Shown piece by piece: positions 2,656 to 23,155 of a stretch of 61,763 nucleotides of DNA (positions are counted from its first letter, which is position 1; each line of letters starts with the position of its first letter). Origin of the DNA: a bacterium (GTDB lineage Bacteria > Patescibacteriota > Minisyncoccia > Phycocordibacterales > CALRBL01). The position numbers and the translations under genes were made by a program. The notes under the pieces are model-generated. The model was not told where the DNA came from and did not search any database. It saw only the letters and a program-made list of their open reading frames with translations. The stretch is from positions 1-61,763 of the forward strand of contig JAIYEG010000011.1 in NCBI GenBank assembly GCA_027487075.1. The letters run 5' to 3'.

Positions 2656-2679
2656 CCACGGCCCAAATTCAAAACCCAA

Positions 2680-2717
2680 CAGGGCGAGCCACAAACGGCT
2701 CGCCCTGTTTTCTTTTT
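2680..2717. terminator. Bidirectional intrinsic terminator between convergent genes
   Basis: Stem CAGGGCGAGCC / GGCTCGCCCTG with a 6-nt loop, followed by a T-run. Confidence 0.7.
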
Positions 2718-5665: not shown

Positions 5666-5754
5666 TCGCGTATAGGCATAGTAGCATATTTTGGGGAGAG
5701 TTCGAGTTTAGGTCACACAGCTCGTATAAAAGGTTAATAATATGACCTAAAACT

Positions 5755-5785
5755 GAAATAAAAAAGAGAGCTGGTCAGGCTCTCG
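5755..5785 (-). terminator. Intrinsic terminator after the 5812-6201 gene
   Basis: Stem GAGAGC / GCTCTC with a 7-nt loop. The A-run on plus is a U-run on the minus transcript. Confidence 0.6.
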
Positions 5786-5811
5786 TTGATTTTGACCGTT
5801 TTAAGTTGAAA

Positions 5812-6201
5812 CTATGCCACTTTAGGCAGACGTGAATCACTTGTCACGTCCATGGTGAACCGCAAACAGCGGAGTTCAGCATCAGCAGCAGCCACAAGGC
5901 GGGCGACTGCAAAACGCTTGAACCTGGCGCCGCAGCGTTCCACTTCCTCAATCGCTTTTCCAAGCGGGAGGAAGTAATTATCGAGCACTTCTTTGAGTCG
6001 GACAGCGACCGTGGTCATGTCCGAATCGTCGAGGTCGAGTTCCGCCGCCATTCCGCTGATGTGGTGTGCCTGAGCTTTGAAGCGCCCGAGCATAGTTTTG
6101 GCGTGTGCGAGATCGATTTCGGGAAGCAAAGCCCCAAAGAGTGCCTCGGTATGAATGAGACGGTTAGGCACCGTGTCGTAGCCGTTTGGGATCAGTTTCA
6201 T
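5812..6201 (-). CDS. GC-rich hypothetical protein with no signal peptide
   Basis: 129-aa ORF with visibly higher GC than its neighbours. It has a TTGACG-N17-TTAAAT-like promoter upstream (minus strand, about 6205-6250) and its own terminator. Confidence 0.55.
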   Translation of the reverse strand: MKLIPNGYDTVPNRLIHTEALFGALLPEIDLAHAKTMLGRFKAQAHHISGMAAELDLDDSDMTTVAVRLKEVLDNYFLPLGKAIEEVERCGARFKRFAVARLVAAADAELRCLRFTMDVTSDSRLPKVA

Positions 6202-6251
6202 TGTGGAGAGCTGTTTGCGCTATTTAACTATTAAAAAAGAGTTACGTCAAC

Positions 6252-6283
6252 AAAAAACACAGGATCTCTCCTGTGTTTTTTGT
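6252..6283. terminator. Bidirectional intrinsic terminator downstream of rpoC
   Basis: Stem ACACAGGA / TCCTGTGT with a 4-nt loop, flanked by an A-run and a T-run. Confidence 0.75.
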
Positions 6284-6317
6284 TTATCTTAGCCCTCAAT
6301 AAAGGTGCCTGTCCCCT

Positions 6318-9300: not shown

Positions 9301-9986
9301 AGATCTACTTTTTTAAAGAGGTTGTATACTGCTTCTGCTCCGATCTGCGCTTCGAACAGTGTTCCAAACTTGAGTGAGAACTTGTGATACTCGATTTCAT
9401 CGAGCACACGTCCTTCCTGAATGCTTTCGATATCGCGCTTTGCTCCCATGAGGAGGTTGGTCACCGCCTCTTTGGTCTTTTCGTCCTGCACGCCTTTTAC
9501 CTTTGACTTATATTCAGAATCCAAATCCTTAAGCACACGAGCTCGTTCTTCTTCGTGCACTTTTGTGATGAGGTAGCCAGCAAAATACACTACCTTTTCG
9601 ATATCACCAGATGGCATACCGAGGACAAGTGCAATACGTGATGGCATTGAGCGAAGGAACCAGATGTGGGCTACCGGTGTTGCAAGCTCGATGTGTCCCA
9701 TGCGTTCACGGCGTACGATTGAGCGAGTGATTTCAACGCCACATTTTTCACAGACGATTCCCTTGTAGCGGATGCCGCGATACTTTCCACAGTAACACTC
9801 AAAATCACGGTCGGGACCGAAGATTTTTTCATCGAACAAACCGTTCTTTTCTGAACGCTGTGTTCGGTAGTTCATGGTTTCAGGCTTTGTCACCTCACCG
9901 TATGACCACTCTTTGATACGATCCGGAGATGCAACCTTAAGCGACACTGCATCGAAGTCGTTTATATTGTGTTCTTTAGTTTTCAT
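6318..9986 (-). CDS. rpoC: DNA-directed RNA polymerase subunit beta-prime
   Basis: The ORF translation carries NADFDGD, zinc-binding CxCGK...CxxCGVE, and conserved trigger-loop and bridge-helix regions. I prefer the ATG at 9984-9986 (MKTKEHNIN...) because the track start at 10046 would overlap the rpoB end. Confidence 0.95.
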
Positions 9987-10005
9987 ATATGTATGGATGA
10001 GGTGA

Positions 10006-13000
10006 TTATTGTGTTGATCTATTAGTATCCCCTGCTTCATGCTCAATGACTTCAGTCGTCATATCTTCGGTACCTCGCATCAATTCGACATCAAGAGCGA
10101 GACCGCGAAGGTTGTTCAAGAGTACACTGAACGAGGCAGGCACGTTTGACTGAGGAATCTTCTGTCCCTTGACGATAGCGTCGAAGGCAGCAGATCGTCC
10201 CTGAATATCGTCTGACTTGATAGTGAGCACTTCTCGAAGCGTATGTGCTGCTCCGTGTCCTGAAAGTGCCCATACTTCCATTTCTCCGAATCGCTGTCCT
10301 CCTCCCTGTGCCTTTCCTCCAAGAGGCTGCTGGGTAATGAGAGAGTACGGACCGATTGATCGCATGTGAATCTTGTCTTCCACCATGTGGTGAAGCTTCA
10401 TGACATACATGTATCCAACCGCAATGCGCTGATCGAAGGTTTCTCCAGTTCGTCCGTCGAAGAGTTCGATCTTTCCGTCTTCTGGAAGACCTGCCTTCTT
10501 GAGTTCTTCTTTGATTTCAACATCTGTTGCTCCGGCAAACGCAGGAACGATAGCCTGATAGTTCAAAGTGTGGGCTGCCATACCAAGGTGGATTTCGAGA
10601 ATCTGTCCGAGGTTCATACGTGAAGGCACGCCGAGCGGTGTAAGGATCACGTCGATTGGTGTACCATCGGCCATGTATGGCATATCTTCTTCAGGAAGAA
10701 TACGTGAGATAACTCCCTTGTTTCCGTGACGTCCCGCCATCTTATCTCCCACAGAAACTGAACGGAGCTGCGCAACTTCGATGTGAATGCGCTTGATGAT
10801 ACCTGATTCGAGCTTTTCACCCTTTTCTCGTGAGAATACTTTCACGCCGATCACGCGACCCTTCTTGCCGTTTTCCATGCGCTTTGACGTGTCTTTCACA
10901 TCGCGTGACTTTTCTCCGAAGATTGAGCGGAGGAGTCGTTCTTCAGGAGTAAGCTGAGTTTCTCCTTTTGGAGTAATTTTTCCTACAAGAATATCTCCAG
11001 GGTGTACTTCGGCACCGATACGCACAATACCTTCTTCATCAAGATTCTTGAGACGGTGCTCACCAACATTAGGAATATCAGGAGTAGTAATTTCGGGACC
11101 GAGCTTGGTGTCGCGTACATTCACCACGAATTCTTCGATGTGGATAGAAGCGAACTTGTTTTCTTTCACGAGACGCTCAGAAATAATGATGGCGTCTTCG
11201 TAGTTTGCTCCAGACCATGTCATGAATGCTACGAATACGTTCTGACCAAGAGCAATTTCTCCATGATCTGAGGTAGATGCATCAGCAAGCACATCACCCT
11301 TCGCAACTTTTTGTCCGAGTGATACCTGAGGACGCTGATAGTATGCGGTGAACTGGTTGGTTCGTGAGATAGGAGCAAGCTTGTATTCAGTTTCTTTGTT
11401 GTCTTTGTCGGCAACAAAGACGATGCGCTGTGCATCAACATACTTGATGGTTCCCGCTGAAGGAGCAACGATCACACGCTTGGTGTCGAGTGCTGCATGA
11501 CCTTCAATACCAGTGGCAACGATAGGAGCTTCGGGGATAACACACGGTGTTCCCTGCTTCTGCATGTTTGAACCCATGAGTGTTCGGTTTGCATCGTCGT
11601 GGTTCAAGAATGGAATCATCGACGTCGCCACAGAGTATGCTTGGTTGGTTGCAATATCCATGTAGTGAATATCTTCCTTCTTCACCACAGCAGGACGACC
11701 TTTCACACGCACCTCAACGATGTCGTCGGTAATCACTCCTTTTTCATCGGTGTTGGTAGCGGCATGCGCAATGTTGAATCCTTCTTCTTCGAGGGCATTC
11801 ATGTATACAATTTCATCGGTCACTTTTCCTTTGGTGACTTTAGCGTAAGGAGTCTCGATCATACCGAACTCGTTGATACGAGCGTAGGCAGACAAGTGAA
11901 GTACGAGACCGATGTTTGGTCCTTCAGGGGTGTGAATAGGACAGATACGGCCGTAGTGAGATGGGTGCACGTCACGCACTTCGAATCCCGCTCGTTCTCG
12001 CGTAAGTCCTCCAGGACCAAGAGCAGAAACGGTGCGGAGATGTTCGAGCTCAGTGAGGAGGTTTTCCTGCTGCATGAACTGTGAGAGCTGGTTAGTGGTG
12101 AAGAACTCTTTAATACGAGCCTGAAGAGGTCGTGGAGAAATAAACTGCACAGGAAGTGACGCATCGGTGTCGATGGTCGACATACGGTTCTGAATGTTTC
12201 GCTTGATCTGTGACATACCCACACGAATCTTCTGAGCAAGAAGCTCACCTACATAGCGCACTCGTCGTGATCCAAGGTGGTCGATGTCGTCTGCTTCAAC
12301 ACCAGTCGTATTATTAAGTTCTGCAATATGAGAAATGGTAGTCACCGCATCATCAAGGTCGATGGTTTTTCGCGCCAAATCCTTTTCCTCGACGCTCTTA
12401 CCAAAGCGCTTGTTGAAGCTGAGACGTCCAATCGGCGAAAGATCGTATCGTTCTGCTCCGAAGATAGAACCAACGAACTCACGTGCGTTTTCTACCGTTG
12501 CAAGATCACCATCACGAAGTCGCTTGTGAATTTCGATGAATGATTCATCGGCTGACTTTGCATGATCCTTTGCGAGGGTCATTTCGATTGCTTTCTTTGC
12601 TTCTGGCTTTCCATCAAAGAGTGCGAGGATCTGATCATTTGAGAGAGAGCCCTTCACACCACCAAGCACGCGAAGAAGTGTCGTTACCGGAAACTTTCGC
12701 TTTCGGTCGATACGTACATATATAGCGCCGTCGGGATCAGATTCAATCTCAATCCATGCACCACGAGCAGGAATGATTTTTGCACCAAAGTAGTTGCGAC
12801 CCTTGAGTTCTTCTGAGGTAAAGAAAATACCGAATGATCGTGCGAGCTGTGGCACAATAACACGCTCGATACCATTAATAATGAAAGTACCGTGATCGGT
12901 CATGAGCGGAAAGTCCGCCATGAAAATCTCCTGCTCTTTTACTGAGCCGAAGGTCTTATTCTTCACACGAACCATCACCTTAAGAGGTGCTTCGTATGAC

Positions 13001-13257
13001 ATCTTATTCTCCTTTGCATAGAATTCATCGAACTTTGGCTTTTCGAGTTCAAAGCTGGTGAAGTCGAGTTCGAACTTCTTGTCTGAGTAGTCCTTAATAG
13101 ATGAGAACTCAGCAAAGACTTCTTTCAAACCAGTCTCGAGGAGTTGATTGAATGAATCGATCTGAGCCTCCACCATGTTTGGAAGAGGAACGAGGGGCTT
13201 TTTGAACTTACCGAAATACTTCTTCTTAAGCTTACCTGGAGCGTGTTGATGCGCCAT
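10006..13257 (-). CDS. rpoB: DNA-directed RNA polymerase subunit beta
   Basis: 1083 aa with typical beta-subunit motifs (GRHGNKGV, FGEMEVWAL, the rifampicin-cluster region SQLSQFMQQ). Confidence 0.96.
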   Translation of the reverse strand: MAHQHAPGKLKKKYFGKFKKPLVPLPNMVEAQIDSFNQLLETGLKEVFAEFSSIKDYSDKKFELDFTSFELEKPKFDEFYAKENKMSYEAPLKVMVRVKNKTFGSVKEQEIFMADFPLMTDHGTFIINGIERVIVPQLARSFGIFFTSEELKGRNYFGAKIIPARGAWIEIESDPDGAIYVRIDRKRKFPVTTLLRVLGGVKGSLSNDQILALFDGKPEAKKAIEMTLAKDHAKSADESFIEIHKRLRDGDLATVENAREFVGSIFGAERYDLSPIGRLSFNKRFGKSVEEKDLARKTIDLDDAVTTISHIAELNNTTGVEADDIDHLGSRRVRYVGELLAQKIRVGMSQIKRNIQNRMSTIDTDASLPVQFISPRPLQARIKEFFTTNQLSQFMQQENLLTELEHLRTVSALGPGGLTRERAGFEVRDVHPSHYGRICPIHTPEGPNIGLVLHLSAYARINEFGMIETPYAKVTKGKVTDEIVYMNALEEEGFNIAHAATNTDEKGVITDDIVEVRVKGRPAVVKKEDIHYMDIATNQAYSVATSMIPFLNHDDANRTLMGSNMQKQGTPCVIPEAPIVATGIEGHAALDTKRVIVAPSAGTIKYVDAQRIVFVADKDNKETEYKLAPISRTNQFTAYYQRPQVSLGQKVAKGDVLADASTSDHGEIALGQNVFVAFMTWSGANYEDAIIISERLVKENKFASIHIEEFVVNVRDTKLGPEITTPDIPNVGEHRLKNLDEEGIVRIGAEVHPGDILVGKITPKGETQLTPEERLLRSIFGEKSRDVKDTSKRMENGKKGRVIGVKVFSREKGEKLESGIIKRIHIEVAQLRSVSVGDKMAGRHGNKGVISRILPEEDMPYMADGTPIDVILTPLGVPSRMNLGQILEIHLGMAAHTLNYQAIVPAFAGATDVEIKEELKKAGLPEDGKIELFDGRTGETFDQRIAVGYMYVMKLHHMVEDKIHMRSIGPYSLITQQPLGGKAQGGGQRFGEMEVWALSGHGAAHTLREVLTIKSDDIQGRSAAFDAIVKGQKIPQSNVPASFSVLLNNLRGLALDVELMRGTEDMTTEVIEHEAGDTNRSTQ

Positions 13258-13404: not shown

Positions 13405-14703
13405 CTAAAACTCGCCGTACCCAGGATTCAACCGACAAACAGGGTCTGGAGTAAAGCGAACAGTCTTTGGCCCACCCTGATCAGCAGTACTACTATCAGT
13501 ACATGTAAAGGTGTGGGTACCGACGGAAACAGGCACAAGTACATTGTTATACGGATAAGGAACGGTAAGACCATCAATACTACATGTTACCGCTCCATTA
13601 CCAGCTGATGTAAGTGTCCAGTCAGAGAGATAACATGAACCACTTGGTGTCGTTACCAAACGAGGGCTGAGGTTATATGTCCCTGGAGTCAGATCATTAT
13701 TCACTGATGGAACACATACCCCCGCAACAACAGTTCCTCCTGTAGCACCACAATCAAATGAGCAACTTTGTGTAGAAGGGATAGGGTTTGGTCCAGTTCC
13801 ATTACATGTCCAATTGATTCTTGTTGAAGTATCTGGGAGGCTGGTATCTGGAGCATTATTTGGTCCACACGTATTGATTGCTGTTCCACATGATGCAGGA
13901 TACGATGTTGCCGGCACATAACAATTCCCTGCATCATCCACCTCACCAGGGGGCACTGTAGTCTGAACATCAGGATGTCCTACATCAGTACACATATCAG
14001 GGTTAAGCTCGGCATCCCACCGCATCCATCCAAGCAAAGCTGAGCCCCATCCCCATCCATTACCATTAAGCCCGCTCACCGAATAAGCGTTTGCTCCGGT
14101 CTTTCTCAGACTAATCCACCCATCCCATCCCCCCATCCTCTCACCGCTGGTTGGATTCGATGCATCAGGAATCTGAGAAACGACACGCGCCCATCCTTCC
14201 ATATAGTCATCATTAGAATTAGCAGGTGTTCCATTGTTATTGATTCTTGCATGAGTCGCAACCGTACCTGGAGCCCTTGCTACCGTAGGCACCGTTCCTG
14301 CACCTGAACCAAAGACAATCCATCCATAATTATCTGACCATGCATATCCGGTTAAATAACGGAATCGATTGCCAGTAAGAGGGCCCGCATTCACCCCATA
14401 ATCATACGATGTACCACTTTGAGGACAATTTCTATATTGACTTATGGACGGTGGAAGGGGTTCGTACAGATTATCACCATCTGGATCACAATTGAGACTA
14501 TTAAGACTGATCCACCCTGCTCCACCACTCGCAGCACCATTAGCATCTTCTACTCCATTATTAAGATATGCCTCAGCCCATATCCACCCTCGCACATTAT
14601 GACTTCCACCAGCATCAGCCTTATTACTATTAATAAGATATAAAGATACCGCCACTACCACACAAGACACCCCCATGAGTCCAAAGAAAAAATATTTTTT
14701 CAT
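13405..14703 (-). CDS. Secreted Trp/Gly-repeat, Cys-rich surface protein ending in PGYGEF (cassette copy 2, large subunit)
   Basis: 432 aa with a signal/anchor (cleavage-like ADA|GGSHNV). It has six GW-type repeats (GWIWAEAY, GWISLNS, GYAWSDNYGWIVFG, GWARVVS, GWDGWISL, GWGWGS..GWMRW) and a DPDGD Ca-like motif. Twelve C-terminal Cys are conserved with the paralog at 18247-19560. Confidence 0.8.
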   Translation of the reverse strand: MKKYFFFGLMGVSCVVVAVSLYLINSNKADAGGSHNVRGWIWAEAYLNNGVEDANGAASGGAGWISLNSLNCDPDGDNLYEPLPPSISQYRNCPQSGTSYDYGVNAGPLTGNRFRYLTGYAWSDNYGWIVFGSGAGTVPTVARAPGTVATHARINNNGTPANSNDDYMEGWARVVSQIPDASNPTSGERMGGWDGWISLRKTGANAYSVSGLNGNGWGWGSALLGWMRWDAELNPDMCTDVGHPDVQTTVPPGEVDDAGNCYVPATSYPASCGTAINTCGPNNAPDTSLPDTSTRINWTCNGTGPNPIPSTQSCSFDCGATGGTVVAGVCVPSVNNDLTPGTYNLSPRLVTTPSGSCYLSDWTLTSAGNGAVTCSIDGLTVPYPYNNVLVPVSVGTHTFTCTDSSTADQGGPKTVRFTPDPVCRLNPGYGEF

Positions 14704-14769
14704 AAACTAATACAAAGTATATCAGCTAAACCTAGATTATTCTATAACTTTCATAGTTTATGTGGATAT
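14704..14769 (-). promoter_or_regulatory. Promoter region of the 13405-14703 gene: extended -10 (TGaTATACT) with an ATATCCACA motif 39 nt upstream
   Basis: On the plus strand, AGTATA lies at 14716-14721 and TGTGGATAT at 14761-14769. The architecture matches the region upstream of 18247-19560. Confidence 0.5.
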
Positions 14770-14783
14770 CTTATAGAAAAAAT

Positions 14784-14811
14784 TTGACAATATATATAAA
14801 AAATGTACTAT
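14784..14811 (+). promoter_or_regulatory. Sigma-70-type promoter for the PEP-CTERM-like gene
   Basis: TTGACA at 14784-14789, 16-nt spacer, TACTAT at 14806-14811. AAGGAG lies about 7 nt before the ATG at 14873. Confidence 0.5.
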
Positions 14812-14872
14812 AAAACTCGAACTTGACTTGCAAAAGTCATCCGTCCTCAACAAAAAAACAAGGAGAATATCC

Positions 14873-15619
14873 ATGAAGTACGCAGCTTTTGTTTTTATGG
14901 TTGCACTTCTGTGCAGCCTTCTTCAGTCCCAGGCACAGGTTCGTGTATGGGATCAGACTGGGTCGTGGGAATTTAAAGACGACCTCTTCTACATTTTCGT
15001 GAAGAAAGGTGATGGGAGCGCTGATCCACAGGGTGGCAGCTTTACCCCAGAAGCCTTCCTCAAGGGAAGCGCAGAAGGTTCCACCGATATCACCACCACC
15101 AGAGGACACTTTGCGTGGACCGCCGAACCGCAACGAATAGCAATAGAGTTCGACAAGGATTCTCGCATCCTCACCTTAGAGGTGGGAAACGGCACAGGAA
15201 TGCTCACGCTCACCCGTACGGTGCGGAGCGACATGATCTTCAACGGTCTGTCGTTTGCAGCACTTATCAACCAAGGAAACGTGAATGCTCCAGCAGGTGT
15301 CGTCAGCTTCACACTGACAAACCTTAGGATTGGCCTTAACGAGCCCATCCGCATGGAGCTCAGCATGAGCAATCCAGGAAGGCCTACTGATGTACCTGAG
15401 GTCGTGTACACATGGGACCCCCATGGTCAACAGACCAGTTTCTCGGGGAGTGGCTACATCACCGCCACGAATGGGTGGGACTGGAACAGAGCAATCGTCA
15501 TCGGTCCGATGTGGATGACGGCACCAAACGCTCTGCCGACTCCTGAACCCTCATCAGGAGTGCTGGTATGGATTGGGCTCCTCTCCCTCTACGGCGTTGC
15601 AAGGCAGAGGCTGAAGTAA
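14873..15619 (+). CDS. GC-rich secreted protein with a PEP-CTERM-like C-terminal sorting signal
   Basis: Start chosen at MKYAAFVFMVALLCSLLQSQAQ (signal peptide, AAGGAG RBS). The C-terminus is ...PTPEPSSGVLVWIGLLSLYGVARQRLK: PEP motif, hydrophobic helix, basic tail. It lies on the opposite strand to the surrounding cassette. Confidence 0.7.
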   Translation: MKYAAFVFMVALLCSLLQSQAQVRVWDQTGSWEFKDDLFYIFVKKGDGSADPQGGSFTPEAFLKGSAEGSTDITTTRGHFAWTAEPQRIAIEFDKDSRILTLEVGNGTGMLTLTRTVRSDMIFNGLSFAALINQGNVNAPAGVVSFTLTNLRIGLNEPIRMELSMSNPGRPTDVPEVVYTWDPHGQQTSFSGSGYITATNGWDWNRAIVIGPMWMTAPNALPTPEPSSGVLVWIGLLSLYGVARQRLK

Positions 15620-15635
15620 CACCACAGAACGTCAA

Positions 15636-15672
15636 ACGGCACACTCTCTCGGGAGTGTGCCGTTTTGTTTTT
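15636..15672. terminator. Bidirectional intrinsic terminator
   Basis: Stem ACGGCACACTC / GAGTGTGCCGT with a 6-nt loop, then TTTTGTTTTT. It sits between the convergent stops at 15619 and 15685. Confidence 0.75.
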
Positions 15673-15684
15673 ATGAAATACACA

Positions 15685-16410
15685 CTAATTCTTTCTGCAA
15701 TAAAGTAACTGTATATAAGGAGCATTTGTGCCAGGCTTAGCACCTCCATCAACATCTCGAGTCTCCGCGGCAGGCACTGATGCCATCTGACTACCTGGAA
15801 GCGCATCATTATTTGTCACGATTCCAGTCGCTACACTTCTCCAATACGCATATGTATGCGTATGTGCTCCGGTTGGCACATTTTGTCCATCAGTAAGTGG
15901 AGTACCGACCGTTGCACCTAAAGTACCACCGGGCCTCAATCCGACGATATATCTTCCTTCAGAACCACCTGTTGTTCCACTGTATGGTGATGGGGATCCA
16001 GCGATATCTTTTGTCCACCCAACCGGACAAGAAGTTCGATTGAACGCAAGAACACCTCCTGAAGGAATTGGTCCTTTTCCTTGTGGACCCTGCGGACCTT
16101 GTAAGCCAATGGTAGACATCGTCCTACAGTTCAAACCATTATCATCACAATATTCTGTTGCTCCCAAACTCCCCTTTACAAGCACAAGAAGATTAGAAGG
16201 AACGGTCATGTTTGTATTAGCAAATAAATTCGAAGATCCACTTGATCGAAAACCTGAAACTCCCAGTGGTCCAGCCTTAGTTTGAGATGTTGCATCAGTT
16301 CTTAATGGTCGAGGAGGATTGCCTCCTGGTGGAACCTCGGTAGAACCCGACCACGCATACACACTTGATACACTTGCCAACATAATAAAGGTGAGAATGA
16401 TAATTTTCAT
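15685..16410 (-). CDS. Secreted collagen-like / tail-collar-like fibre protein (copy 2, chain c)
   Basis: 241 aa. Signal VYA|WSGS, YCDDNGLNC, GLQGPQGPQGKG, VPSGGVLAF..CPVGW..GRYIVG, TGAHTHTY, C-terminal GTNAPYIQLLYCRKN. Confidence 0.8.
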   Translation of the reverse strand: MKIIILTFIMLASVSSVYAWSGSTEVPPGGNPPRPLRTDATSQTKAGPLGVSGFRSSGSSNLFANTNMTVPSNLLVLVKGSLGATEYCDDNGLNCRTMSTIGLQGPQGPQGKGPIPSGGVLAFNRTSCPVGWTKDIAGSPSPYSGTTGGSEGRYIVGLRPGGTLGATVGTPLTDGQNVPTGAHTHTYAYWRSVATGIVTNNDALPGSQMASVPAAETRDVDGGAKPGTNAPYIQLLYCRKN

Positions 16411-16413
16411 ATA

Positions 16414-17160
16414 TTAATTTTTTTCACAATAAAGCATCTGAACATATGGCGCATTTGTTCCCGCTCGACCAGTAGCGTTGTCTGTTTTTGGTGTGCTATC
16501 GACAGCCATTTGACTACCAGCAATTTTTGATGTCTTTTCACCAGTGTAGGAAGCAGTGATCCTCCAGTACGTATACGTATGCGTATGTGCTCCGGTTGGT
16601 CGATTTTCTCCTTCGCTCAAGTTGTCACCAATCTGTAATCCGAGCCTACCACCATTATTGAGCCCAACAACATATCTTCCATCCGCAGGAGAGAACCTTG
16701 TCCATCCACTAGGACACACCGATGTAGAAAAAGGCACCACCGCCCCACTTGGTACGGTAGTTTCTCCTGGTAATCCTGCTAAACCTGCGGGGCCATCTAT
16801 AGCCATATCAAGGATCGTCTTACAATTTTGGGCATTATCATCACAGTAACGTGATGCTCCGGTATTTCCGTTTATTGCAAGCGTGAGTGTTGTTGGTGGC
16901 CACGATGCTCTCGTCGAAGACGAGAACCAACTTGCTCTATAAGGTGAAGCATAAAAAGGCATTGCGATGGAACGAAATCCTCCAACGGTGAGTTGGCCGG
17001 GAATTAATTGTGTGACATCACTGGTATTAACCGGCGGAAGAACATTACCTCCAGGCGGTGGAGCTGTTGGTCCACTCCACGCAAACGCATTACTTATAGA
17101 TAAAGTAAGCACGAGTGCAAGTAAGACAATTTGTATATTTTTATAAAAGAATGTTTTCAT
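16414..17160 (-). CDS. Secreted collagen-like / tail-collar-like fibre protein (copy 2, chain b)
   Basis: 248 aa. Signal AFA|WSGP, YCDDNAQNC, GPAGLAGLPGET, CPSGW, GRYVVG, TGAHTHTY, GTNAPYVQMLYCEKN. Confidence 0.8.
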   Translation of the reverse strand: MKTFFYKNIQIVLLALVLTLSISNAFAWSGPTAPPPGGNVLPPVNTSDVTQLIPGQLTVGGFRSIAMPFYASPYRASWFSSSTRASWPPTTLTLAINGNTGASRYCDDNAQNCKTILDMAIDGPAGLAGLPGETTVPSGAVVPFSTSVCPSGWTRFSPADGRYVVGLNNGGRLGLQIGDNLSEGENRPTGAHTHTYTYWRITASYTGEKTSKIAGSQMAVDSTPKTDNATGRAGTNAPYVQMLYCEKN

Positions 17161-17164
17161 GCTA

Positions 17165-17941
17165 TTAATTTTTTCTACACATCAAATACTGAACATATGG
17201 AGCATTTGTTGCACCCGCACCAGCAGCTCGTGTGGTTCCGCTGGTAAGACCCATTTGATTTAACGCAAATGTCGATGATACGTTTGTATATCCTACATAT
17301 GTTGGCGGTGTAGGTGAGAATGTATAGGTATACGTATGAGTATGCGCTCCCGTAGCAACGGCCTGTCGATCATTGAGCGCAGTACCTACTTGTCTTCCCA
17401 CCTGACCTCCAGGATTTACCCCCACAATATATCGCCCTTGCACCTCAACATATTCAGACCACCCACTTGGACACGATGTAACATTTGAAAAAGCAACCAC
17501 ACCACCTGATGGCATTTGTGCTGTGCTATCAGGTCCTGCCGGTCCTGCCGGTCCTATATCACCAAAATCAGTTGCCCTCAAACAATTCTGACCATTATCA
17601 TCACAATACTGAACTGAGCCTATTTTTCCATTTACACCCAACATCAAACTTCCAAGACCAGTCCAGCCAACACGCGTTTCATTAGAAAAGTAATTACCTC
17701 CAGAGGATATCGAGTGTAGACCACCATTAACTTTAAGTGTGCCATACTTCTCTTGCCATGAACTTCCTGTATTGAGAGGAGCTAGTGCATTATTTCCTGG
17801 TGCTACTCGTGTAGGAACTGACCATTCAGAAATGGTCGTAGGGGCAGTAATAGGAGCCGATTGAGAAAATACTTGAATCGCACCAATAAACACCAGTGAG
17901 AAAGTACCCGCTTTTAGGAATAAACTACTATATTTTTTCAT
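17165..17941 (-). CDS. Secreted collagen-like / tail-collar-like fibre protein (copy 2, chain a)
   Basis: 258 aa. Signal peptide, YCDDNGQNC, GPAGPAGPD, CPSGW, GRYIVG, TGAHTHTY, ATNAPYVQYLMCRKN. Its start overlaps the upstream gene's stop by 4 nt (ATGA). Confidence 0.8.
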   Translation of the reverse strand: MKKYSSLFLKAGTFSLVFIGAIQVFSQSAPITAPTTISEWSVPTRVAPGNNALAPLNTGSSWQEKYGTLKVNGGLHSISSGGNYFSNETRVGWTGLGSLMLGVNGKIGSVQYCDDNGQNCLRATDFGDIGPAGPAGPDSTAQMPSGGVVAFSNVTSCPSGWSEYVEVQGRYIVGVNPGGQVGRQVGTALNDRQAVATGAHTHTYTYTFSPTPPTYVGYTNVSSTFALNQMGLTSGTTRAAGAGATNAPYVQYLMCRKN

Positions 17942-18183
17942 CTTTCGATAAGATACTTATCCATATCTTTCACTTCTTCTCTGTTAATGTCTTGAGACGG
18001 CCGCACTAGACGACTATCCATCACCTGAAACTGTTGCTCGACAGTAAGCCTATCCCACTCATCATGCACTGAACGAGGTGTATTCAAATTAAAACTTAGT
18101 GACAGAGTAAAGATAGTGAGGGTAATAAAAATAATAGTATACAAAATAAAATGTGTACCCGTATATGTAATACGATGTTTCAT
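17938..18183 (-). CDS. Small single-pass membrane protein, first gene of cassette copy 2
   Basis: 81 aa, MKHRITYTGTHFILYTIIFITLTIF..., with a charged C-terminal tail. It is a paralog of 22144-22401 (shared R-I-x-Y-T-x-x-HFILYT-x-IF). Confidence 0.7.
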   Translation of the reverse strand: MKHRITYTGTHFILYTIIFITLTIFTLSLSFNLNTPRSVHDEWDRLTVEQQFQVMDSRLVRPSQDINREEVKDMDKYLIER

Positions 18184-18194
18184 ATCTTATTTTG

Positions 18195-18240
18195 ATTATA
18201 CTGTGATTATGATTACATTGACAAGTAACGGTTATCCACA
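18195..18240 (-). promoter_or_regulatory. Promoter of cassette copy 2: TGTGGATAA-N7-TTGTCA-N18-TATAAT-N11-ATG (read on minus)
   Basis: On the plus strand: ATTATA 18195-18200, TGACAA 18219-18224, TTATCCACA 18232-18240. Confidence 0.65.
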
Positions 18241-18246
18241 AACCAC

Positions 18247-19560
18247 TTAGAATTCACCGTAACCTGGACTACGTCGACAAACTGGATCAGGATTAAAGCG
18301 AACTGTCTGTGGCACAGGACTACTATCACGACAAGTGAGCGTATGTGTACCTACTGTTAGATTTGTACTATTGGTTCCTGTGTATGGAATATCTGCTCCA
18401 CCATTTATCTGACAGTTTACTTGTCCTACTCCTAGTGAAGTGAGTCGCCAATTCGAAAGTCTGCATGTTTCTGAAGGAGAATTTACAAATCTTGGAATAA
18501 GATCATATCCTCCTGCAGCAAGTGGGGTACTAGATGCTACACACACTTCACCTTGGATAATCTGACCTGCAGGACATGGGTAACTACATGTTGTGTCTTC
18601 AGCTGGAACCGGATTGGAACCACTACCTCGACAGGTCCATCGCAAGGTCGTTCCGGTGTTTGCCGGTGAATTTGTTATGACCGTGTTACCCATACCACAT
18701 CCATTTTGTTGAGTGTTCACACACTGTGCTGGGTATACAGGAGTTGGGATAGTACATGTACCATCCACATTTCGCACATAAGGATCTTGCACTGTATTTT
18801 GGATGCCATCCAGATTACTACACATATCCGGATTAGTATCAAACAATTGCCACTGCATCCACCCCATAAGACTTGATCCCCATGACCATCCTGGATTCGA
18901 CGAACGGGCCATTACTCTATACGTAATAGGACTTGCAGTCGTACTTGCTTTTCCAAGGCTTATCCATCCACTCCAGTCACCTGTTTTTTTTGAAAGACCA
19001 GTTCTTTGTGATACCACACGAGCCCAACCTTCGATATAATCATCGTCTAAGGTTGGCGTATTATTGTTGTTAATACGTGCGGCAACCGGAGTCAGTCCCG
19101 CTCCAGTAGGATAACCTGCTCCCGCGGCAGCAGTTCCAAATCCGATCCATCCATAATTATCTGACCATGCATAGCCAGTTAAATTTCTATATCGATCACC
19201 TGGCTGACCCGAAGCAGAAACACCATAATCATATGCTATTCCAGATTTTGGACAATTTTGATACAACCGTACACTTTCCGGAATAGCTTCATACTGCCCA
19301 TCTCCGTCAGGGTCACAATTTAAGCTATTAAGACTAATCCATCCTGAACCGCCATTTTGGGAACCCAATGCAGTTTCTGCAGGATCTTCTATTCCGTTAC
19401 CATTTTGATCAACATATGCTTCAGCCCATACCCACCCTTTCACATTATGACTCGATCCCGCCTCAGCATCAGGTGTTTTTCTTAAAAAAAACATCGCGCC
19501 TAACGAAAGTACTGAGGTAATAGTAAACAATGCGATGACAATAATAATTTTCTTTTTCAT
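18247..19560 (-). CDS. Secreted Trp/Gly-repeat, Cys-rich surface protein ending in PGYGEF (cassette copy 1, large subunit)
   Basis: 437 aa, paralog of 13405-14703. It has the same GW repeats (GWVWAEAY, GWISLNSLNCDPDGDG, GYAWSDNYGWIGFG, GWARVVSQ, WSGWISL, GWSWGSSLMGWMQW), the same 12 Cys positions and the same C-terminus SPGYGEF. Confidence 0.8.
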   Translation of the reverse strand: MKKKIIIVIALFTITSVLSLGAMFFLRKTPDAEAGSSHNVKGWVWAEAYVDQNGNGIEDPAETALGSQNGGSGWISLNSLNCDPDGDGQYEAIPESVRLYQNCPKSGIAYDYGVSASGQPGDRYRNLTGYAWSDNYGWIGFGTAAAGAGYPTGAGLTPVAARINNNNTPTLDDDYIEGWARVVSQRTGLSKKTGDWSGWISLGKASTTASPITYRVMARSSNPGWSWGSSLMGWMQWQLFDTNPDMCSNLDGIQNTVQDPYVRNVDGTCTIPTPVYPAQCVNTQQNGCGMGNTVITNSPANTGTTLRWTCRGSGSNPVPAEDTTCSYPCPAGQIIQGEVCVASSTPLAAGGYDLIPRFVNSPSETCRLSNWRLTSLGVGQVNCQINGGADIPYTGTNSTNLTVGTHTLTCRDSSPVPQTVRFNPDPVCRRSPGYGEF

Positions 19561-19577
19561 AAGAATCTTTACCCTAA

Positions 19578-19631
19578 ATTATAGCAATATATCGATAATA
19601 AACTATCACCATCGCAGTAACATGTGGATAA
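19578..19631 (-). promoter_or_regulatory. Promoter region of 18247-19560: extended -10 (TGcTATAAT) with TTATCCACA exactly 39 nt upstream
   Basis: On the plus strand: ATTATA 19578-19583 followed by GCA, and TGTGGATAA at 19623-19631. Confidence 0.55.
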
Positions 19632-19683
19632 CTATGTATGGATGTTTGACATACGTCAGCACCCTCCTCATACTCACATCAGT

Positions 19684-19716
19684 CAAAGCGGCACTCTTGC
19701 GAGTGCCGCTTTTGTC
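19684..19716. terminator. Intrinsic terminator after chain c of copy 1
   Basis: Stem AGCGGCACTC / GAGTGCCGCT with a 4-nt loop and T-rich flanks. It resembles the hairpin at 15636 in the equivalent position of copy 2. Confidence 0.65.
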
Positions 19717-19717
19717 T

Positions 19718-20482
19718 TTAGGAGACTTTTCTGCAGTAAAGTAACTGAACATAAGGTGCGTTGGTTCCAGGCACCAGAGAGGTGTTTGATGACGATATAT
19801 CCCCTCCCAGAATTGCCGGGTATCCTGGAGTTACGTAGGTTACCGTTGTACCATCATTACCTTGTTCAGAATTACCATCAGTTCTGGTGAAAGATACATT
19901 ATTCGGGTTATCACTACCAAGAACAAGATGTGTATGTGCACCTGTAGGACGATTAGCCAAATTCGACAATCTTGTTCCCACAACGGTTCCTATAGATCCA
20001 CGTGGTGATGCTCCCACAATATACAAGCCAGGGCCTGCATTGTTATCAAGTGGTTGCCATCCCAAATTGGCTGGGCACGATGTGCTTCTAAAAGCCGCGA
20101 TCGCACCAACGGGCACAGTACTCGTACCTTTAGGACCTACAGGCCCTGGTGTTCCACTTGCATTGATGGGCCTACAATTTCTTCCTAAATCATCACAGTA
20201 CTGAGATGCCCCTATACTTCCTCCTCTTACGGTAAGCACGAGATTTGAAGGAGGGTTAAATACACCTGAAGAGAAGGTTGATTGCCCCATTGCATAGAGT
20301 CCACGGGTAAACAAAATACCATCTTTTGTTTGACTACCTGATCCCACATTGATTGGTCGTACAGAGTTATTACCAGGAGCAATCTCATCGTTTCCTGACC
20401 ACGCATCAGCAACAGCCGAGACACTAAAAAGTAGTGCGATGATGAGCATAATTTTTAGTGTATTAACATTCTGTGTTGTCAT
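19718..20482 (-). CDS. Secreted collagen-like / tail-collar-like fibre protein (copy 1, chain c)
   Basis: 254 aa. Signal ADA|WSGN, YCDDLGRNC, GTPGPVGPKGTS, CPANLGW, TGAHTH, GTNAPYVQLLYCRKVS. It shares PSNL-L-V-GS-GA-YCDD with 15685-16410. Confidence 0.8.
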   Translation of the reverse strand: MTTQNVNTLKIMLIIALLFSVSAVADAWSGNDEIAPGNNSVRPINVGSGSQTKDGILFTRGLYAMGQSTFSSGVFNPPSNLVLTVRGGSIGASQYCDDLGRNCRPINASGTPGPVGPKGTSTVPVGAIAAFRSTSCPANLGWQPLDNNAGPGLYIVGASPRGSIGTVVGTRLSNLANRPTGAHTHLVLGSDNPNNVSFTRTDGNSEQGNDGTTVTYVTPGYPAILGGDISSSNTSLVPGTNAPYVQLLYCRKVS

Positions 20483-20491
20483 ATAAATAAA

Positions 20492-21274
20492 TTAGTTTTT
20501 AATACAATAAAGTAGCTGGATGTATGGAGCATTGGTTCCTGGAATATGATTTGATGAAGGTTGTGTAGCAAATGAAGCAGCTGCTCTGGTAATAGGTACA
20601 CTTCTTACAAGATATACATCATTTCTTGGGCTGCCTGACATACGAGAATTTCCCAACCCCCCATTTGGCACAGTTGGTCCTGTTATAGTCCGATTAATAT
20701 AATTTACTGTGTGTATATGATTTCCAGCTGGCCTGTTTTCACCATCTGAAAGAGCTCTCCCTACGGTTCTTTCTAAATTAGTTCTTGCTGTAGCGTTTGC
20801 AAGACCAACAACATATCTGCCTTGTGCTGCAGTATACAAACTCCATGTCGAAGGACACTGTGCCAAATCAAAAGCAACCACGGTACCTGCAGGCACAGGG
20901 TCACCAACCGGACCCTGAGGTCCAGCTGGACCAGAAGTAATCACATCACTAAACAATCGACAATTAAGACCATTATCATCGCAATATGACGCTGCGCCAA
21001 TAGAACCATTTGCTGCTAACGTAAGATTTCTTGGGGGCCACGAGGCTCTCGTCGAAGTTGAAAACCACGCCGTTCCTAACGAACCATACCCTCTTACCGT
21101 AAGCATCCCTGAAATTTCTTGAAGAACATTTGTCGTATTTACTGGAGACGGCATATTATTATTTGGAGGAATACCTGTAGGACCTGACCACGCAAGTGCA
21201 TGCGAAGAAGAAACTATCACTAGTGCAACCAATGACACACTAAAGATGGTACATATGTTTTTAAGTGTTTTCAT
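20492..21274 (-). CDS. Secreted collagen-like / tail-collar-like fibre protein (copy 1, chain b)
   Basis: 260 aa. Signal ALA|WSGP, WFSTSTRASWPP (shared with 16414-17160), YCDDNGLNC, GPAGPQGPVGDP, GRYVVG, AGNHIH, GTNAPYIQLLYCIKN. Confidence 0.8.
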   Translation of the reverse strand: MKTLKNICTIFSVSLVALVIVSSSHALAWSGPTGIPPNNNMPSPVNTTNVLQEISGMLTVRGYGSLGTAWFSTSTRASWPPRNLTLAANGSIGAASYCDDNGLNCRLFSDVITSGPAGPQGPVGDPVPAGTVVAFDLAQCPSTWSLYTAAQGRYVVGLANATARTNLERTVGRALSDGENRPAGNHIHTVNYINRTITGPTVPNGGLGNSRMSGSPRNDVYLVRSVPITRAAASFATQPSSNHIPGTNAPYIQLLYCIKN

Positions 21275-21280
21275 GTGAGA

Positions 21281-22141
21281 TTAATTTTTTCTGCAATAAA
21301 GAAACTGAATATATGGCGCATTGGTTCCAGGAACACCCTCATAAATAGCTGCCATGTTATTTGGTCTTAAATCAACATCTGCGCTTACAAACTCCAAATG
21401 ATCGAAATCATTTTTGCCATCTTGATAGAAAATAACCCTGTGGGTATATAAAATCCTATTATTTCCATCACGTAAAGGTTGACCATTAGTTCCTCGTCTT
21501 GGCTCGATCATTGCAGCTGTATCGATCATATTTCTTTGATACGAGAATACATGAGTTCCGTGTTCTCCTGTTGGTCTATTTTCTTCATTATCCAATCTTG
21601 TACCGCGCGTTGTTCTTACCGCAGAAGGTGAATTAGCTCCCACAATATATCGTCCTTCAGCTTCAGAAAAATATGACCACCCATCCGGACATGATGTGGC
21701 ACTAAAAGGCATTACCGCTCCACTTGGCATCACAGGTGCAGATGGCCCAGCCGGACCTCGTGGCCCCACCATCAACGCAGTAACTGAACGACAGTTCCCT
21801 CCATTCTCATCACAATACGCCCTTGCACCAATAGAACCATTCACCGCCAACATAAGATTAGAGCGGGGCCAAGCGCTACCATCAGGATTTCTTGTACGTG
21901 TCGATGTTGAAAACCACCCTGTCCCCAATGATCGAAAACCACCCATAACCCCTAAGATGCCGAGCTTTTCTTGTGGAATATTTGAAGTAGTTAGAGGAGC
22001 AACAACATTTCTTGAATTAGCGGTTGAAGGAGAGCCAGTGGTAGGTGCCGTCCATGCGTGCACCTGAGTTGCTATCACAAAGAAAGCCACTACGGCTACA
22101 ATTTTTGATACCACTGTCATGTGTTTAAAATAGGTTTTCAT
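21281..22141 (-). CDS. Secreted collagen-like / tail-collar-like fibre protein (copy 1, chain a)
   Basis: 286 aa. Signal VHA|WTAP, YCDENGGNC, GPRGPAGPS, CPDGW, GRYIVG, TGEHGTH, then a ~72-aa insert before GTNAPYIQFLYCRKN. Confidence 0.8.
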   Translation of the reverse strand: MKTYFKHMTVVSKIVAVVAFFVIATQVHAWTAPTTGSPSTANSRNVVAPLTTSNIPQEKLGILGVMGGFRSLGTGWFSTSTRTRNPDGSAWPRSNLMLAVNGSIGARAYCDENGGNCRSVTALMVGPRGPAGPSAPVMPSGAVMPFSATSCPDGWSYFSEAEGRYIVGANSPSAVRTTRGTRLDNEENRPTGEHGTHVFSYQRNMIDTAAMIEPRRGTNGQPLRDGNNRILYTHRVIFYQDGKNDFDHLEFVSADVDLRPNNMAAIYEGVPGTNAPYIQFLYCRKN

Positions 22142-22143
22142 AA

Positions 22144-22401
22144 TTAATAGGATGTAACTCGTAGCTTCATAACTTCGTAAGCATCTGTATCGTTTATCAC
22201 ACCACTAACAACACGGGACGACATTTCATCAACCTGTTTTTCCCACTCCTCTTCTGAGAGAGTAGTTTCATTTTGGAGAGGAGTAGCATGGTTTATCGAC
22301 TGATTAATTTCTTTCAAGAGCAAGGTACCTACTACAAGAGCAGTAAAAATAACCGTATATAAAATAAAATGCGAGTACGTATACTGAATGCGCGTATCCA
22401 T
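22144..22401 (-). CDS. Small single-pass membrane protein, first gene of cassette copy 1
   Basis: 85 aa, MDTRIQYTYSHFILYTVIFTALVVGTLLL..., with an acidic C-terminal tail. Paralog of 17938-18183. Confidence 0.7.
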   Translation of the reverse strand: MDTRIQYTYSHFILYTVIFTALVVGTLLLKEINQSINHATPLQNETTLSEEEWEKQVDEMSSRVVSGVINDTDAYEVMKLRVTSY

Positions 22402-22456: not shown

Positions 22457-23155
22457 TTACTTCTCTTTTTTCTTTCCTCGCTGTTCCCTCCACTGATCTA
22501 TGAGCTTGTGATTACCTGAAAGCAGCACCTTCGGCACTTTATAGTTTTTTCCTTTGTAGCTGAGCACTTCGGGACGAGTATAGACTTCAGATGATGCAGT
22601 GCGTGATTCTTCGAGTGATTCAAATGAGCCGAGTACTCCCTTGATTTGACGAGCAATTGTATCGATCACCACCATTGCAGGGAGTTCTCCACCTGTGAGG
22701 ACGTAATCACCAATAGAAAGCTCTTCTGCTTTGAGAATTTTGACCACACGCGCATCCACTCCTTCATAGCGTCCGCAAATAAGAATGATATCGGTGTATT
22801 TCTTTGCAGTTTTCTTTGCGTACGCTGTTTCAAGTTGAGTACCGCTTGGAGAAAAGAAAATGATCTTTGGCTTCTTTGCATCTTTTATCTTCGCAATAGC
22901 CTCACGCGCCGCATCTACCGCTTTGAGCACCGGCTCAGCCTGCATCACCATACCAGGCCCGCCCCCATACGCTTTATCATCAATGCGCAAATACGGCTTT
23001 TCATTCTGCTTCTGTCCTTCGGTGGGCTCTACATAGTCACGAGGGTTATAAAACGCATATTCGATGAGCCCTGCTTTTTGTGCACGCAAAAGAATCGACT
23101 CATTGATATATGAATCAAACATATGCGGAAAAAGAGTGATGATGTGAAAACGCAT
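22457..23155 (-). CDS. trmD: tRNA (guanine37-N1)-methyltransferase
   Basis: 232 aa, MRFHIITLFPHMF..., ICGRYEGVDARV, GDYVLTGGELPAMVVIDT. Confidence 0.93.
   Translation of the reverse strand: MRFHIITLFPHMFDSYINESILLRAQKAGLIEYAFYNPRDYVEPTEGQKQNEKPYLRIDDKAYGGGPGMVMQAEPVLKAVDAAREAIAKIKDAKKPKIIFFSPSGTQLETAYAKKTAKKYTDIILICGRYEGVDARVVKILKAEELSIGDYVLTGGELPAMVVIDTIARQIKGVLGSFESLEESRTASSEVYTRPEVLSYKGKNYKVPKVLLSGNHKLIDQWREQRGKKKEK

Follow-up and report, generated by a model that had tools for sequence, protein, structure and literature searches.

The window analysed here is the whole 61,763-nucleotide contig JAIYEG010000011.1 (assembly GCA_027487075.1), a chromosomal contig of a Paceibacterota/Parcubacteria (Patescibacteria) bacterium. 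Between its trmD and rpoB genes lie two gene cassettes encoding six secreted proteins, chains a1, b1 and c1 and chains a2, b2 and c2, each composed of a conserved N-terminal module (N-module), a short Gly-X-Y run and a C-terminal head (C-domain) resembling the tail collar of phages. We propose that this interval is a hypervariable island encoding short surface fibres, each a homotrimer clasped by a metal and bearing an exchangeable tip, which probably serve in host recognition; we give this reading a probability of about 60%. The trimer state, the metal site, the disulphides, the preference for homotrimers over heterotrimers, the adhesin role and the parts played by the accessory proteins SMALL and LARGE (see below) are what we infer from the comparisons described below.

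Each chain gene would encode a Sec-exported subunit (mature length ~215-260 residues) of a short, tail-fibre-like surface fibre. The conserved N-module would attach or present the fibre at the cell surface, with a likely Cys-x6-Cys disulphide loop within its YCDDNGxNC motif, and three or four Gly-X-Y triplets would form a short neck or linker. The minimal collar-type head, similar to those of T4 gp10 and gp12, would form a trimer with an HxH metal site at its three-fold axis, its C-terminus would be pinned by another likely disulphide, between SCPxGW and LLYCxK, and the hypervariable insert of 39-74 residues between HxH and GTNAPY would be the likely ligand-binding surface. Each chain most likely forms its own homotrimer, so that the two operons, each consisting of a gene for a small membrane protein (SMALL) and the chain genes a, b and c, would supply six alternative tips and not two three-chain complexes. 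SMALL is the probable partner of the N-module, and a larger secreted Cys-rich protein (LARGE) may also take part. The likely role of the fibres would be recognition of, or adhesion to, the host-cell surface by an episymbiotic Paceibacterota bacterium.

Six secreted chains with a common layout

All six chain open reading frames (ORFs) are intact on the minus strand, with coordinates unchanged from the initial annotation (Table 1). The proteins align over their full length with 45 invariant columns, including W40, Y-C-D, N-C, G-P-x-G, P-x-G, F, C-P, W, G-x-Y-x-V-G, H-x-H and T-N-A-P-Y-x-Q-x-L-x-C-x-K. Since each chain matches the family profile with an E value of 1e-88 to 1e-107, the shared layout is not due to chance, and the common architecture first described for the six proteins was borne out. 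Every chain starts with a signal peptide whose cleavage context reads A-x-A↓W, a1 being the atypical case; this chain also has ~10 extra residues between the hydrophobic core of the signal peptide and the conserved Trp. The N-module runs from W-S/T-x-P...P-x-x-N...P...Q-x-K-x-G-x-L to G-x-x-Y-C-D-x-x-x-x-N-C (YCDDNGxNC) and is followed by the Gly-X-Y run, while the C-domain carries the motifs P-x-G-x-x-x-x-F, SCPxGW, G-x-Y-x-V-G, G-x-H-x-H and GTNAPYxQxLYCxK.

The motifs listed in the initial annotation held apart from three slips: c2 has GLY for GRY, a1 has LMC for LYC, and a2 has H-G-T-H for H-x-H. This last chain shows a one-residue insertion in the near-invariant HxH (T-G-E-H-G-T-H-V), together with the longest variable insert (74 amino acids). 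To judge from its residues, the metal site of a2, if any, would differ from that of the other five chains.

The Gly-X-Y run occupies the identical alignment position in 6/6 chains. Strict counting gave 4, 4 and 4 triplets for a1, b1 and c1 (3 for a1 without GDI) and 3, 4 and 4 for a2, b2 and c2; the 3/4/4 pattern originally assigned to both copies was thus roughly right, with an exact fit in cassette 2. No window chain matches Pfam Collagen (PF01391), the triplets numbering only 3-4, and close relatives have a poly-Gly linker at the same position. The most plausible view is that the head nucleates the run, which would act as a short neck or linker.

A head remotely related to phage tail collars

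The tail-collar-like nature of the head was accepted as a remote relationship supported by sequence and model comparisons, and not as Pfam membership. Pfam Collar (PF07484, gathering score 24 bits) matched none of the six chains and 0/81 of the closest C-domain homologues at E up to 0.01, and Gp10_C (PF21939) gave no direct match for the window chains. The tail-collar parallel of the initial annotation is supported by bridging homologues and fold matches, with no direct match to the Collar hidden Markov model. First, two homologues, P0024 and P0025, align with the profile of the window C-domain (E 3e-11 and 7.5e-10) and also pass Pfam Gp10_C, which describes the C-terminal domain of the T4 baseplate protein gp10, at 29.3 and 31.2 bits (cutoff 27). 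Two other proteins join a window-type N-module to a different head: in P0013 a head of another subtype passes Pfam Collar at 3.2e-18, and in L061_267 the head, judged by eye, is of the classical collar type with a DLRG motif. Secondly, the C-domain of b1 was modelled as a monomer with AlphaFold2 from an alignment of 81 sequences (predicted local distance difference test, pLDDT, 76.7) and compared with the viral proteins of BFVD by Foldseek. Nearly all of the top matches (E 9.8e-5 to 5e-3, probability 0.97-1.00) carry names of the phage tail collar, Gp10 C-terminal or MdpB kind, and their template modelling (TM) scores are moderate, only ~0.4.

Two differences account for the missing Collar match. 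The window subtype is without the ~25-residue 'ls..y..Lf...F.LPDLRGR' loop of the Collar model (by eye), its CPxGW and GRYxVG motifs being separated by ~8-20 residues; a loop of the F-x-L-P-D-L-R-G-R type is present in P0013, P0007 and L061_267. In addition, the 'GGxxxH.LT..E.P.H.H' of Collar is replaced by 'L.D.ENRP.G.H.H'. The six chains gave no Pfam match to the C1q domain, and because their fold matches are of the collar or tail-fibre type, the head is not a gC1q domain (TNF-like jelly roll).

The head is probably trimeric. HxH is kept in at least 90% of the 81 homologues and in 5/6 window chains; in R-pyocin fibres, T4 gp37 and gp12, three HxH copies provide the six histidines of an octahedral Fe/Zn site located on the three-fold axis (PMC6116203). 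In ~8 of 75 non-window homologues, 4 to >14 Gly-X-Y triplets form collagen runs that end 2-5 residues before the C-domain, Pfam Collagen is passed by 5 of the 81 homologues, and others have typical beta-fibre repeats upstream of the C-domain. Tandem C-domains, two or three per chain, were observed in P0031 (601 amino acids), P0005/P0006 (338), P0037 (295) and P0033 (878), along with runs of DPGHxH repeats that resemble the iron-binding needle of T4 gp37. As read from their sequences, these tandem C-domains would be consistent with heads stacked along a homotrimeric fibre.

Two cassettes between trmD and rpoB

The initial annotation had delimited cassettes of three chains. Three chains per copy were indeed found, and the cassettes proved bigger, including SMALL and LARGE too. 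Cassette 2 comprises SMALL2, a2, b2, c2 and LARGE2, and cassette 1 comprises SMALL1, a1, b1, c1, one opposite-strand gene and LARGE1, this duplicated array being bounded by trmD and rpoB (Table 1). The same promoter-like site, TTGTCA-18-TATAAT (11/12 match), stands 5' of both SMALL genes, and strong hairpins lie directly 3' of the stop codons of c2 and c1 (the latter with a 14-bp stem), all of these promoter and terminator signals being consensus matches only. The TGA stop of SMALL1 overlaps the ATG start of a1 (ATGA), and the chain genes are spaced 3-9 nucleotides apart. Given the promoter-like site, the hairpin after c, the overlap and the short gaps, SMALL-a-b-c looks like one transcription unit. 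The opposite-strand gene has a promoter-like site of its own.

The contig surroundings are of the housekeeping kind, with rpoB, rpoC, dnaG, rpoD, trmD, rpsP, RNase R, SMC, dnaE, gyrB and tRNA synthetases. The window RpoB is 74-79% identical to those of named Paceibacterota, Parcubacteria, Taylorbacteria and Kaiserbacteria and 88-91% identical to those of metagenome relatives. Another cell-surface-related gene was noted at 55888-58086 on the minus strand; it encodes a 732-amino-acid protein with an O-antigen-ligase-type (Wzy_C) membrane domain and C-terminal TPR repeats.

Table 1. Coordinates of the window genes and signals and of related loci (loci other than the window are numbered with L; aa, amino acids; RpoB, identity to the window RpoB)
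Locus	Feature	Positions	Strand	RpoB	Description
Window	trmD	22457-23155	-		one boundary of the array
Window	promoter-like site of SMALL2	22440-22411			TTGTCA-18-TATAAT
Window	SMALL2	22144-22401	-		85-aa single-pass membrane protein, opens cassette 2
Window	chain a2	21281-22141	-		286 aa; signal peptide, N-module, GPR-GPA-GPS (21740-21766), collar-like C-domain, H-G-T-H, 74-aa variable insert
Window	chain b2	20492-21274	-		260 aa; GPA-GPQ-GPV-GDP (20897-20932), HxH, 57-aa insert
Window	chain c2	19718-20482	-		254 aa; GTP-GPV-GPK-GTS (20120-20155), HxH, 53-aa insert
Window	hairpin after c2	19685-19712			strong
Window	LARGE2	18247-19560	-		437-aa secreted Cys-rich protein, GW...GWISL repeats, PGYGEF end
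Window	promoter-like site of SMALL1	18224-18195			TTGTCA-18-TATAAT
Window	SMALL1	17938-18183	-		81-aa single-pass membrane protein, opens cassette 1
Window	chain a1	17165-17941	-		258 aa; GDI-GPA-GPA-GPD (17528-17563), HxH, 42-aa insert
Window	chain b1	16414-17160	-		248 aa; GPA-GLA-GLP-GET (16759-16794), HxH, 39-aa insert
Window	chain c1	15685-16410	-		241 aa; GLQ-GPQ-GPQ-GKG (16072-16107), HxH, 41-aa insert
Window	hairpin after c1	15634-15665			14-bp stem
Window	opposite-strand secreted protein	14828-15619	+		263-aa ORF, likely start Met at 14873, PEP-CTERM-like C-terminus; between c1 and LARGE1
Window	promoter-like site of opposite-strand gene	14784-14811			
Window	LARGE1	13405-14703	-		432-aa secreted Cys-rich protein, PGYGEF end, directly upstream of rpoB
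Window	rpoB	10006-13257	-		other boundary of the array
Window	trmD-rpoB island	13405-22401		100%	2 x (SMALL + 3 chains + LARGE)
L058	trmD-rpoB island	5038-8480		91%	SMALL + 1 chain with unrelated Cys-rich head + opposite-strand PEP-CTERM-like gene + LARGE
L058	SMALL-type gene	5038-5298			
L058	opposite-strand homologue	6249-6977	-		
L058	LARGE relative	7110-8480			
L059	trmD-rpoB island	4692-9845		91%	SMALL + Peptidase_S74-head chain + 159-aa Cys-rich protein + other-head chain + opposite-strand Calx-beta gene + LARGE
L059	SMALL-type gene	4692-4937			
L059	LARGE relative	8814-9845			
L060	trmD-rpoB island	8664-9879		90%	SMALL + 1 chain with classical collar-type head; no LARGE
L060	SMALL-type gene	8664-8906			
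L061/L062	trmD-rpoB island	8722-9848 (L061)		90%	SMALL + 1 chain with DLRG collar-type head; no LARGE
L061	SMALL-type gene	8722-9018			
L064, L065	trmD-rpoB interval			80-81%	empty, ~200 bp
L001	LARGE relative	2256-4313			
L001	SMALL-type gene	4310-4597			
L002	SMALL-type gene	721-1029			

A hypervariable island among relatives

Relatives were found via RpoB and LARGE and compared at the syntenic trmD-rpoB interval. In the Paceibacterota clade of the window, this interval is a hypervariable island: where the initial annotation had supposed a fixed set of three chains per cassette, the relatives hold 0, 1, 1, 1 or 2 chains against six in the window. Other Patescibacteria loci contain clusters of 1, 2, 3 or 6 N-module genes, often beside a LARGE homologue, and single-chain loci are common across Patescibacteria. 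At a limit of E 1e-3 the family counts 6,851 representative proteins, of which 49 remain at E up to 1e-30. It is modular, the N-module and the C-domain also occurring apart. The N-module is common to chains with collar-type, Peptidase_S74, Cys-rich and other heads. The six heads of the window and the wholesale replacement of heads between genomes with 90-91% RpoB identity indicate very fast turnover, of the sort typical for partner-recognition proteins; LARGE shows only 35% identity between the window and L058, against 91% for RpoB. A search of plasmids by tblastn with a collar-type homologue returned single copies only, with no triple arrays, and was uninformative.

The combination of a constant N-module with exchangeable heads of the phage-fibre type, in an island that differs completely between genomes at 90-91% RpoB identity, is the pattern expected of host-range determinants. 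If confirmed, it would provide a concrete candidate for host specificity in uncultured Paceibacterota, and the trmD-rpoB interval would be a marker locus for strain-level host switching.

Three observations concern the wider family and its neighbours. The last ~30 residues of the N-module (G-x-I/V-G-A-x-x-Y-C-D-x-x-G-x-N-C) form a repeated unit, with as many as 6-8 copies, in giant proteins of 1,000-5,000 amino acids, reaching 6,785 among the representative matches (loci L021, L023, L026, L029, L030, L034-L039, L042, L044, L047, L048 and L052-L056). These belong to Micavibrio and other Alphaproteobacteria, Gracilibacteria, Peregrinibacteria/Peribacteria, Elusimicrobiota and DPANN-type archaea, and many of the lineages bearing them are predatory or episymbiotic. 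In L001, type IV pilus genes (T2SSE ATPase, T2SSF platform and N_methyl pilins, 4616-12000) come directly after a cluster of LARGE, SMALL and a single chain. L059 has an N_methyl pilin-like gene (3417-3926) close upstream of the island, placed between trmD and a KH-domain gene.

Partner genes of the chains

A SMALL-type gene stands directly 5' of the first chain gene in every relative holding the island. The SMALL-type proteins have 80-102 amino acids, a single membrane pass and 2-3 short internal repeats in a charged tail. SMALL1 and SMALL2 are 41% identical; between genomes the sequences are barely alignable, and BLASTP of the window SMALL1 against the SMALL-type protein of L058 gave no match. 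SMALL would be a membrane anchor or an assembly helper, and a possible analogy may be drawn with T4 gp57A, a small helical chaperone of fibre folding.

LARGE1 and LARGE2 are 53% identical. Their N-terminal region is built of H-N-x-x-G-W-x-W...G-W-I-S-L/F repeats, their C-terminal half is Cys-rich, and their C-terminal end (...C-R-x-x-P-G/N-Y-G-E-F) is invariant within the clade. The family is limited to hypothetical proteins of Patescibacteria, and a LARGE homologue adjoins N-module genes in at least 13 other loci. Orthologues stand beside rpoB in L058 (35% identical) and in L059 (identified by a match to the LARGE profile). LARGE is probably an optional partner.

No significant Pfam, NCBIfam or PHROG match was obtained for LARGE, SMALL or the opposite-strand ORF. 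The opposite-strand protein matches the NF038129 PEP-CTERM tail weakly and has a PEP motif, a hydrophobic helix and a basic tail. Its homologue in L058 has the same place and orientation (E 6e-12) and ends in ...VPEPAALGLLLAGATFLGSLRLRKL. To our knowledge, PEP-CTERM/exosortase sorting is not expected in Patescibacteria, and the window proteins that were scanned included no exosortase.

Weighing the fibre model

Several observations weigh against the proposed fibre. The six chains have no direct match in Pfam (E up to 1), NCBIfam or PHROG, and a 31-member family profile retrieved nothing relevant among the PDB sequences. The structural models are monomers of moderate confidence (pLDDT 62 for full-length b1, 77 for its C-domain); the full-length model is poor and its PDB matches are weak. 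Foldseek matches of the models in the PDB have E values of 0.02 or worse and TM scores of 0.2-0.4. Though individually non-significant, they count in favour of a collar-like, probably trimeric head, since all are trimeric fibres of phages or contractile injection systems: 6ov6 (prophage tip C24), 8on5 (fibre of the Photorhabdus extracellular contractile injection system, eCIS), 2fkk (T4 gp10 C-domain, E 0.83), 9nxk (Pa223 fibre), 2xgf (T4 gp37 tip) and 5iv5 (T4 baseplate chain). Alignment by hhalign with single T4 gp12 and gp10 sequences gave short, non-significant matches (E 0.01-0.18, probability <5%), which sit at structurally sensible places (gp12 331-360, gp10 511-537) and are not used as proof. 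In addition, a run of three or four Gly-X-Y triplets is too short to keep a triple helix stable by itself, a2 carries H-G-T-H and not HxH, and LARGE is missing from some relatives (L060 and L061).

The chains might not be adhesins at all, and could be secreted soluble collar-domain proteins, perhaps monomeric, acting as lectin- or bacteriocin-like effectors, as envelope structural proteins or as proteins of the MdpB type. They carry no recognisable anchor motif, the mature proteins are short for a fibre, and stand-alone MdpB/collar proteins are widespread in bacteria, for example as 'hypothetical protein' on rhizobial and cyanobacterial plasmids. However, two features speak for a cell-attached protein, namely the conserved N-module that comes right behind the signal peptide and the invariably co-transcribed SMALL, and head swapping on a constant N-module, including the Peptidase_S74 chaperone head, is a signature of receptor-binding fibres. 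Collagen or beta-fibre stalks upstream of the head in homologues and the very fast evolution of the locus compared with housekeeping genes, as seen for LARGE and RpoB, point the same way, and we regard a non-adhesive role as unlikely.

The heteromeric alternatives depend on the relationships among the six chains, which are 37-54% identical in pairs. Homologues from two public protein collections were used for the external comparison. Every window chain finds its best external match, at 31-38% identity, among the same few proteins, which is below nearly all intra-window pairs, and the six chains form one clade (58% bootstrap); they are lineage-specific paralogues. The array would have arisen within the window lineage by tandem triplication and block duplication. 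DNA repeats between the copies are 60-85% identical, mirroring protein conservation, and show no sign of recent duplication. Between c1 (15839-15891) and b1 (16562-16614), 53 nucleotides around the ENRPTGAHTHTY motif reach 85% identity, well above the rest of the two genes, perhaps as a result of local gene conversion in cassette 1.

It is quite unlikely, in our estimate, that a homotrimeric adhesin turned recently, in the window lineage only, into a co-translated three-chain fibre with the chains arranged as a:b:c or freely mixing. If this were true, an asymmetric or combinatorial collar head would multiply binding specificities, and the fold class, of which the characterised examples (gp10, gp11, gp12, gp37 and R-pyocin) use identical chains, would gain a heteromeric member from bacteria. 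The fibre would then belong to a hitherto undescribed Patescibacteria fibre system of SMALL, N-module chains and LARGE, with tips exchanged between near-identical genomes.

The initial annotation had gone further and suggested an obligate 1:1:1 heterotrimer, with a, b and c co-assembling through the Gly-X-Y neck and collar head in the manner of C1q A, B and C, so that the two cassettes would yield two fibres. Each cassette copy does keep three tightly packed chain genes, apparently co-transcribed from one promoter to one terminator, and the six ORFs have stayed intact despite 46-63% divergence. The conserved a-b-c order that had been proposed was confirmed for b1 and b2, which are clear positional counterparts (54% identity; bootstrap 97%, or 72% on the N-module alone); the pairing of a1 with a2 is weak (47% bootstrap), and c1 and c2 are unpaired in the trees, yet both are without a short 'STRxSWP' loop. 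The cassette 2 linkers of 20, 21 and 19 residues (a, b and c) would fit a one-residue collagen stagger, and the H-G-T-H of a2 might be tolerated only in a mixed trimer.

These points are set against a larger body of evidence. Two of the results that the initial annotation had named as refuting its proposal were obtained, namely the lack of a significant Collar match and a varying number of chains per cassette in related genomes. The chain number varies among relatives, and one chain type evidently suffices for assembly, since relatives and many Patescibacteria loci hold a single chain. The idea that a, b and c form orthologous groups across genomes failed, none being found outside the contig. 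Positional pairing is only marginally the best of the 15 possible pairings, with 3 supporting columns and a tie with another pairing, and no column of the six-chain alignment holds three chain-specific residues, so that chain-specific signature columns are almost absent. Identity of the collar core ranges from 41 to 61% between chains and is highest for a1 and c1 (61%), and insert lengths sort by cassette and not by position (39-42 residues in cassette 1, 53-74 in cassette 2). The cassette 1 linkers measure 22, 22 and 19 residues. Retention of three genes in both cassettes is not independent evidence, because a block duplication copies them in a single event. Moreover, the head has no gC1q fold and no long collagen stalk, and the structurally known relatives gp10, gp11, gp12, gp37 and the R-pyocin fibres are trimers of identical chains. 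A C1q-style heterotrimer is therefore not supported; it would be notable for fibre structural biology, but we consider it improbable.

Promiscuous mixed trimers, in which chains from one mRNA combine freely into up to 10 compositions per cassette, are also improbable. The core positions and the HxH clasp are conserved within the 45 invariant columns, translation appears coupled within the operon, and the cassette 1 inserts are alike in length. However, pseudo-symmetric packing of an intertwined head is unlikely for cores with so low an identity and for the longer, more variable inserts of cassette 2, and mixed-chain assembly is not reported for T4 gp10, gp11, gp12 and gp37 or R-pyocin fibres in PMC3004832 and PMC6116203.

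A remnant of a prophage or tailocin tail-fibre module, to which the fold class of the head would be suited, was rejected as highly improbable because of the housekeeping context (rpoB/C, trmD, rpsP and RNase R, with no other phage genes) and the Sec signal peptides, which are not expected on virion fibres; b1 gave no tblastn match in 50,697 phage records, the chains gave no PHROG match, and related modules occupy the same chromosomal site in several relatives.

Comparison with known systems

Neither the fold class nor the notion of tail-fibre-like adhesins on cells is new. No family models and no papers were found for this subtype of head, for the N-module, for SMALL and LARGE as partners, or for the hypervariable trmD-rpoB island of Paceibacterota, all of which appear undescribed; literature searches returned nothing on 'tail collar' with Patescibacteria, nor on MdpB/COG4675. 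Two articles describe host recognition by episymbiotic Patescibacteria (candidate phyla radiation, CPR) as largely unknown beyond type IV pili (PMC12206443, PMC11665869).

With the collar (PF07484), the 'flower-motif' of T4 gp10, gp11 and gp12 (PF21939) and MdpB (COG4675), the window heads share an opening strand V-P-x-G-A-V-x-x-F...P-x-G-W (compare gp12 338-357), G-R-x-x-V-G, HxH and a closing strand 'N-x-x-P-Y-x-x-L-x-x-C/I'. Unlike these proteins, the window chains are Sec-secreted and cellular, lie outside a virion, and have a novel N-module and two probable disulphides. The gene arrangement is also reminiscent of T4, where gp10, gp11 and gp12 are encoded by sequential paralogous genes on one mRNA and each forms a trimer of identical chains (PMC3004832). 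The near-invariant HxH recalls the T4 gp37 tip, gp12 and the R-type pyocin shaft, as do the tandem DPGHxH repeats of P0031 and the presence of 2xgf and 5iv5 among the fold matches; in contrast, there is one HxH per window chain, changed to H-G-T-H in a2, and the metal site is putative.

Like C1q, the window has three tandem paralogous genes per cassette and Gly-X-Y triplets N-terminal to a globular head. It differs in the head, which is no gC1q/TNF-like jelly roll, in having 3-4 triplets, and in its variable copy number and lack of a/b/c orthologous groups. The collagen-like tail fibres of enterohaemorrhagic Escherichia coli prophages are trimers with Gly-X-Y segments between trimerisation domains (PMC3368898). 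Unlike the window chains, these fibres have long, self-stable collagen domains and other flanking domains (PfN, Pf2 and PfC).

A further counterpart is found in the MAT fibres of Bdellovibrio bacteriovorus, surface-displayed trimers with a signal peptide, a conserved N-domain and swapped tips that include S74 (PMC10769870). MAT fibres have 600 to more than 1000 amino acids and long beta-helical stalks, whereas the window chains have ~250 amino acids and are encoded in a small operon with SMALL, and sometimes LARGE, at a single hypervariable island of monoderm-like Patescibacteria. The likeness would be one of design only: a signal peptide, a conserved N-domain, exchangeable tips including Peptidase_S74 (in the relative L059), many paralogues per genome, an organism that lives on bacteria, and a proposed role in recognising the surface of the partner cell.

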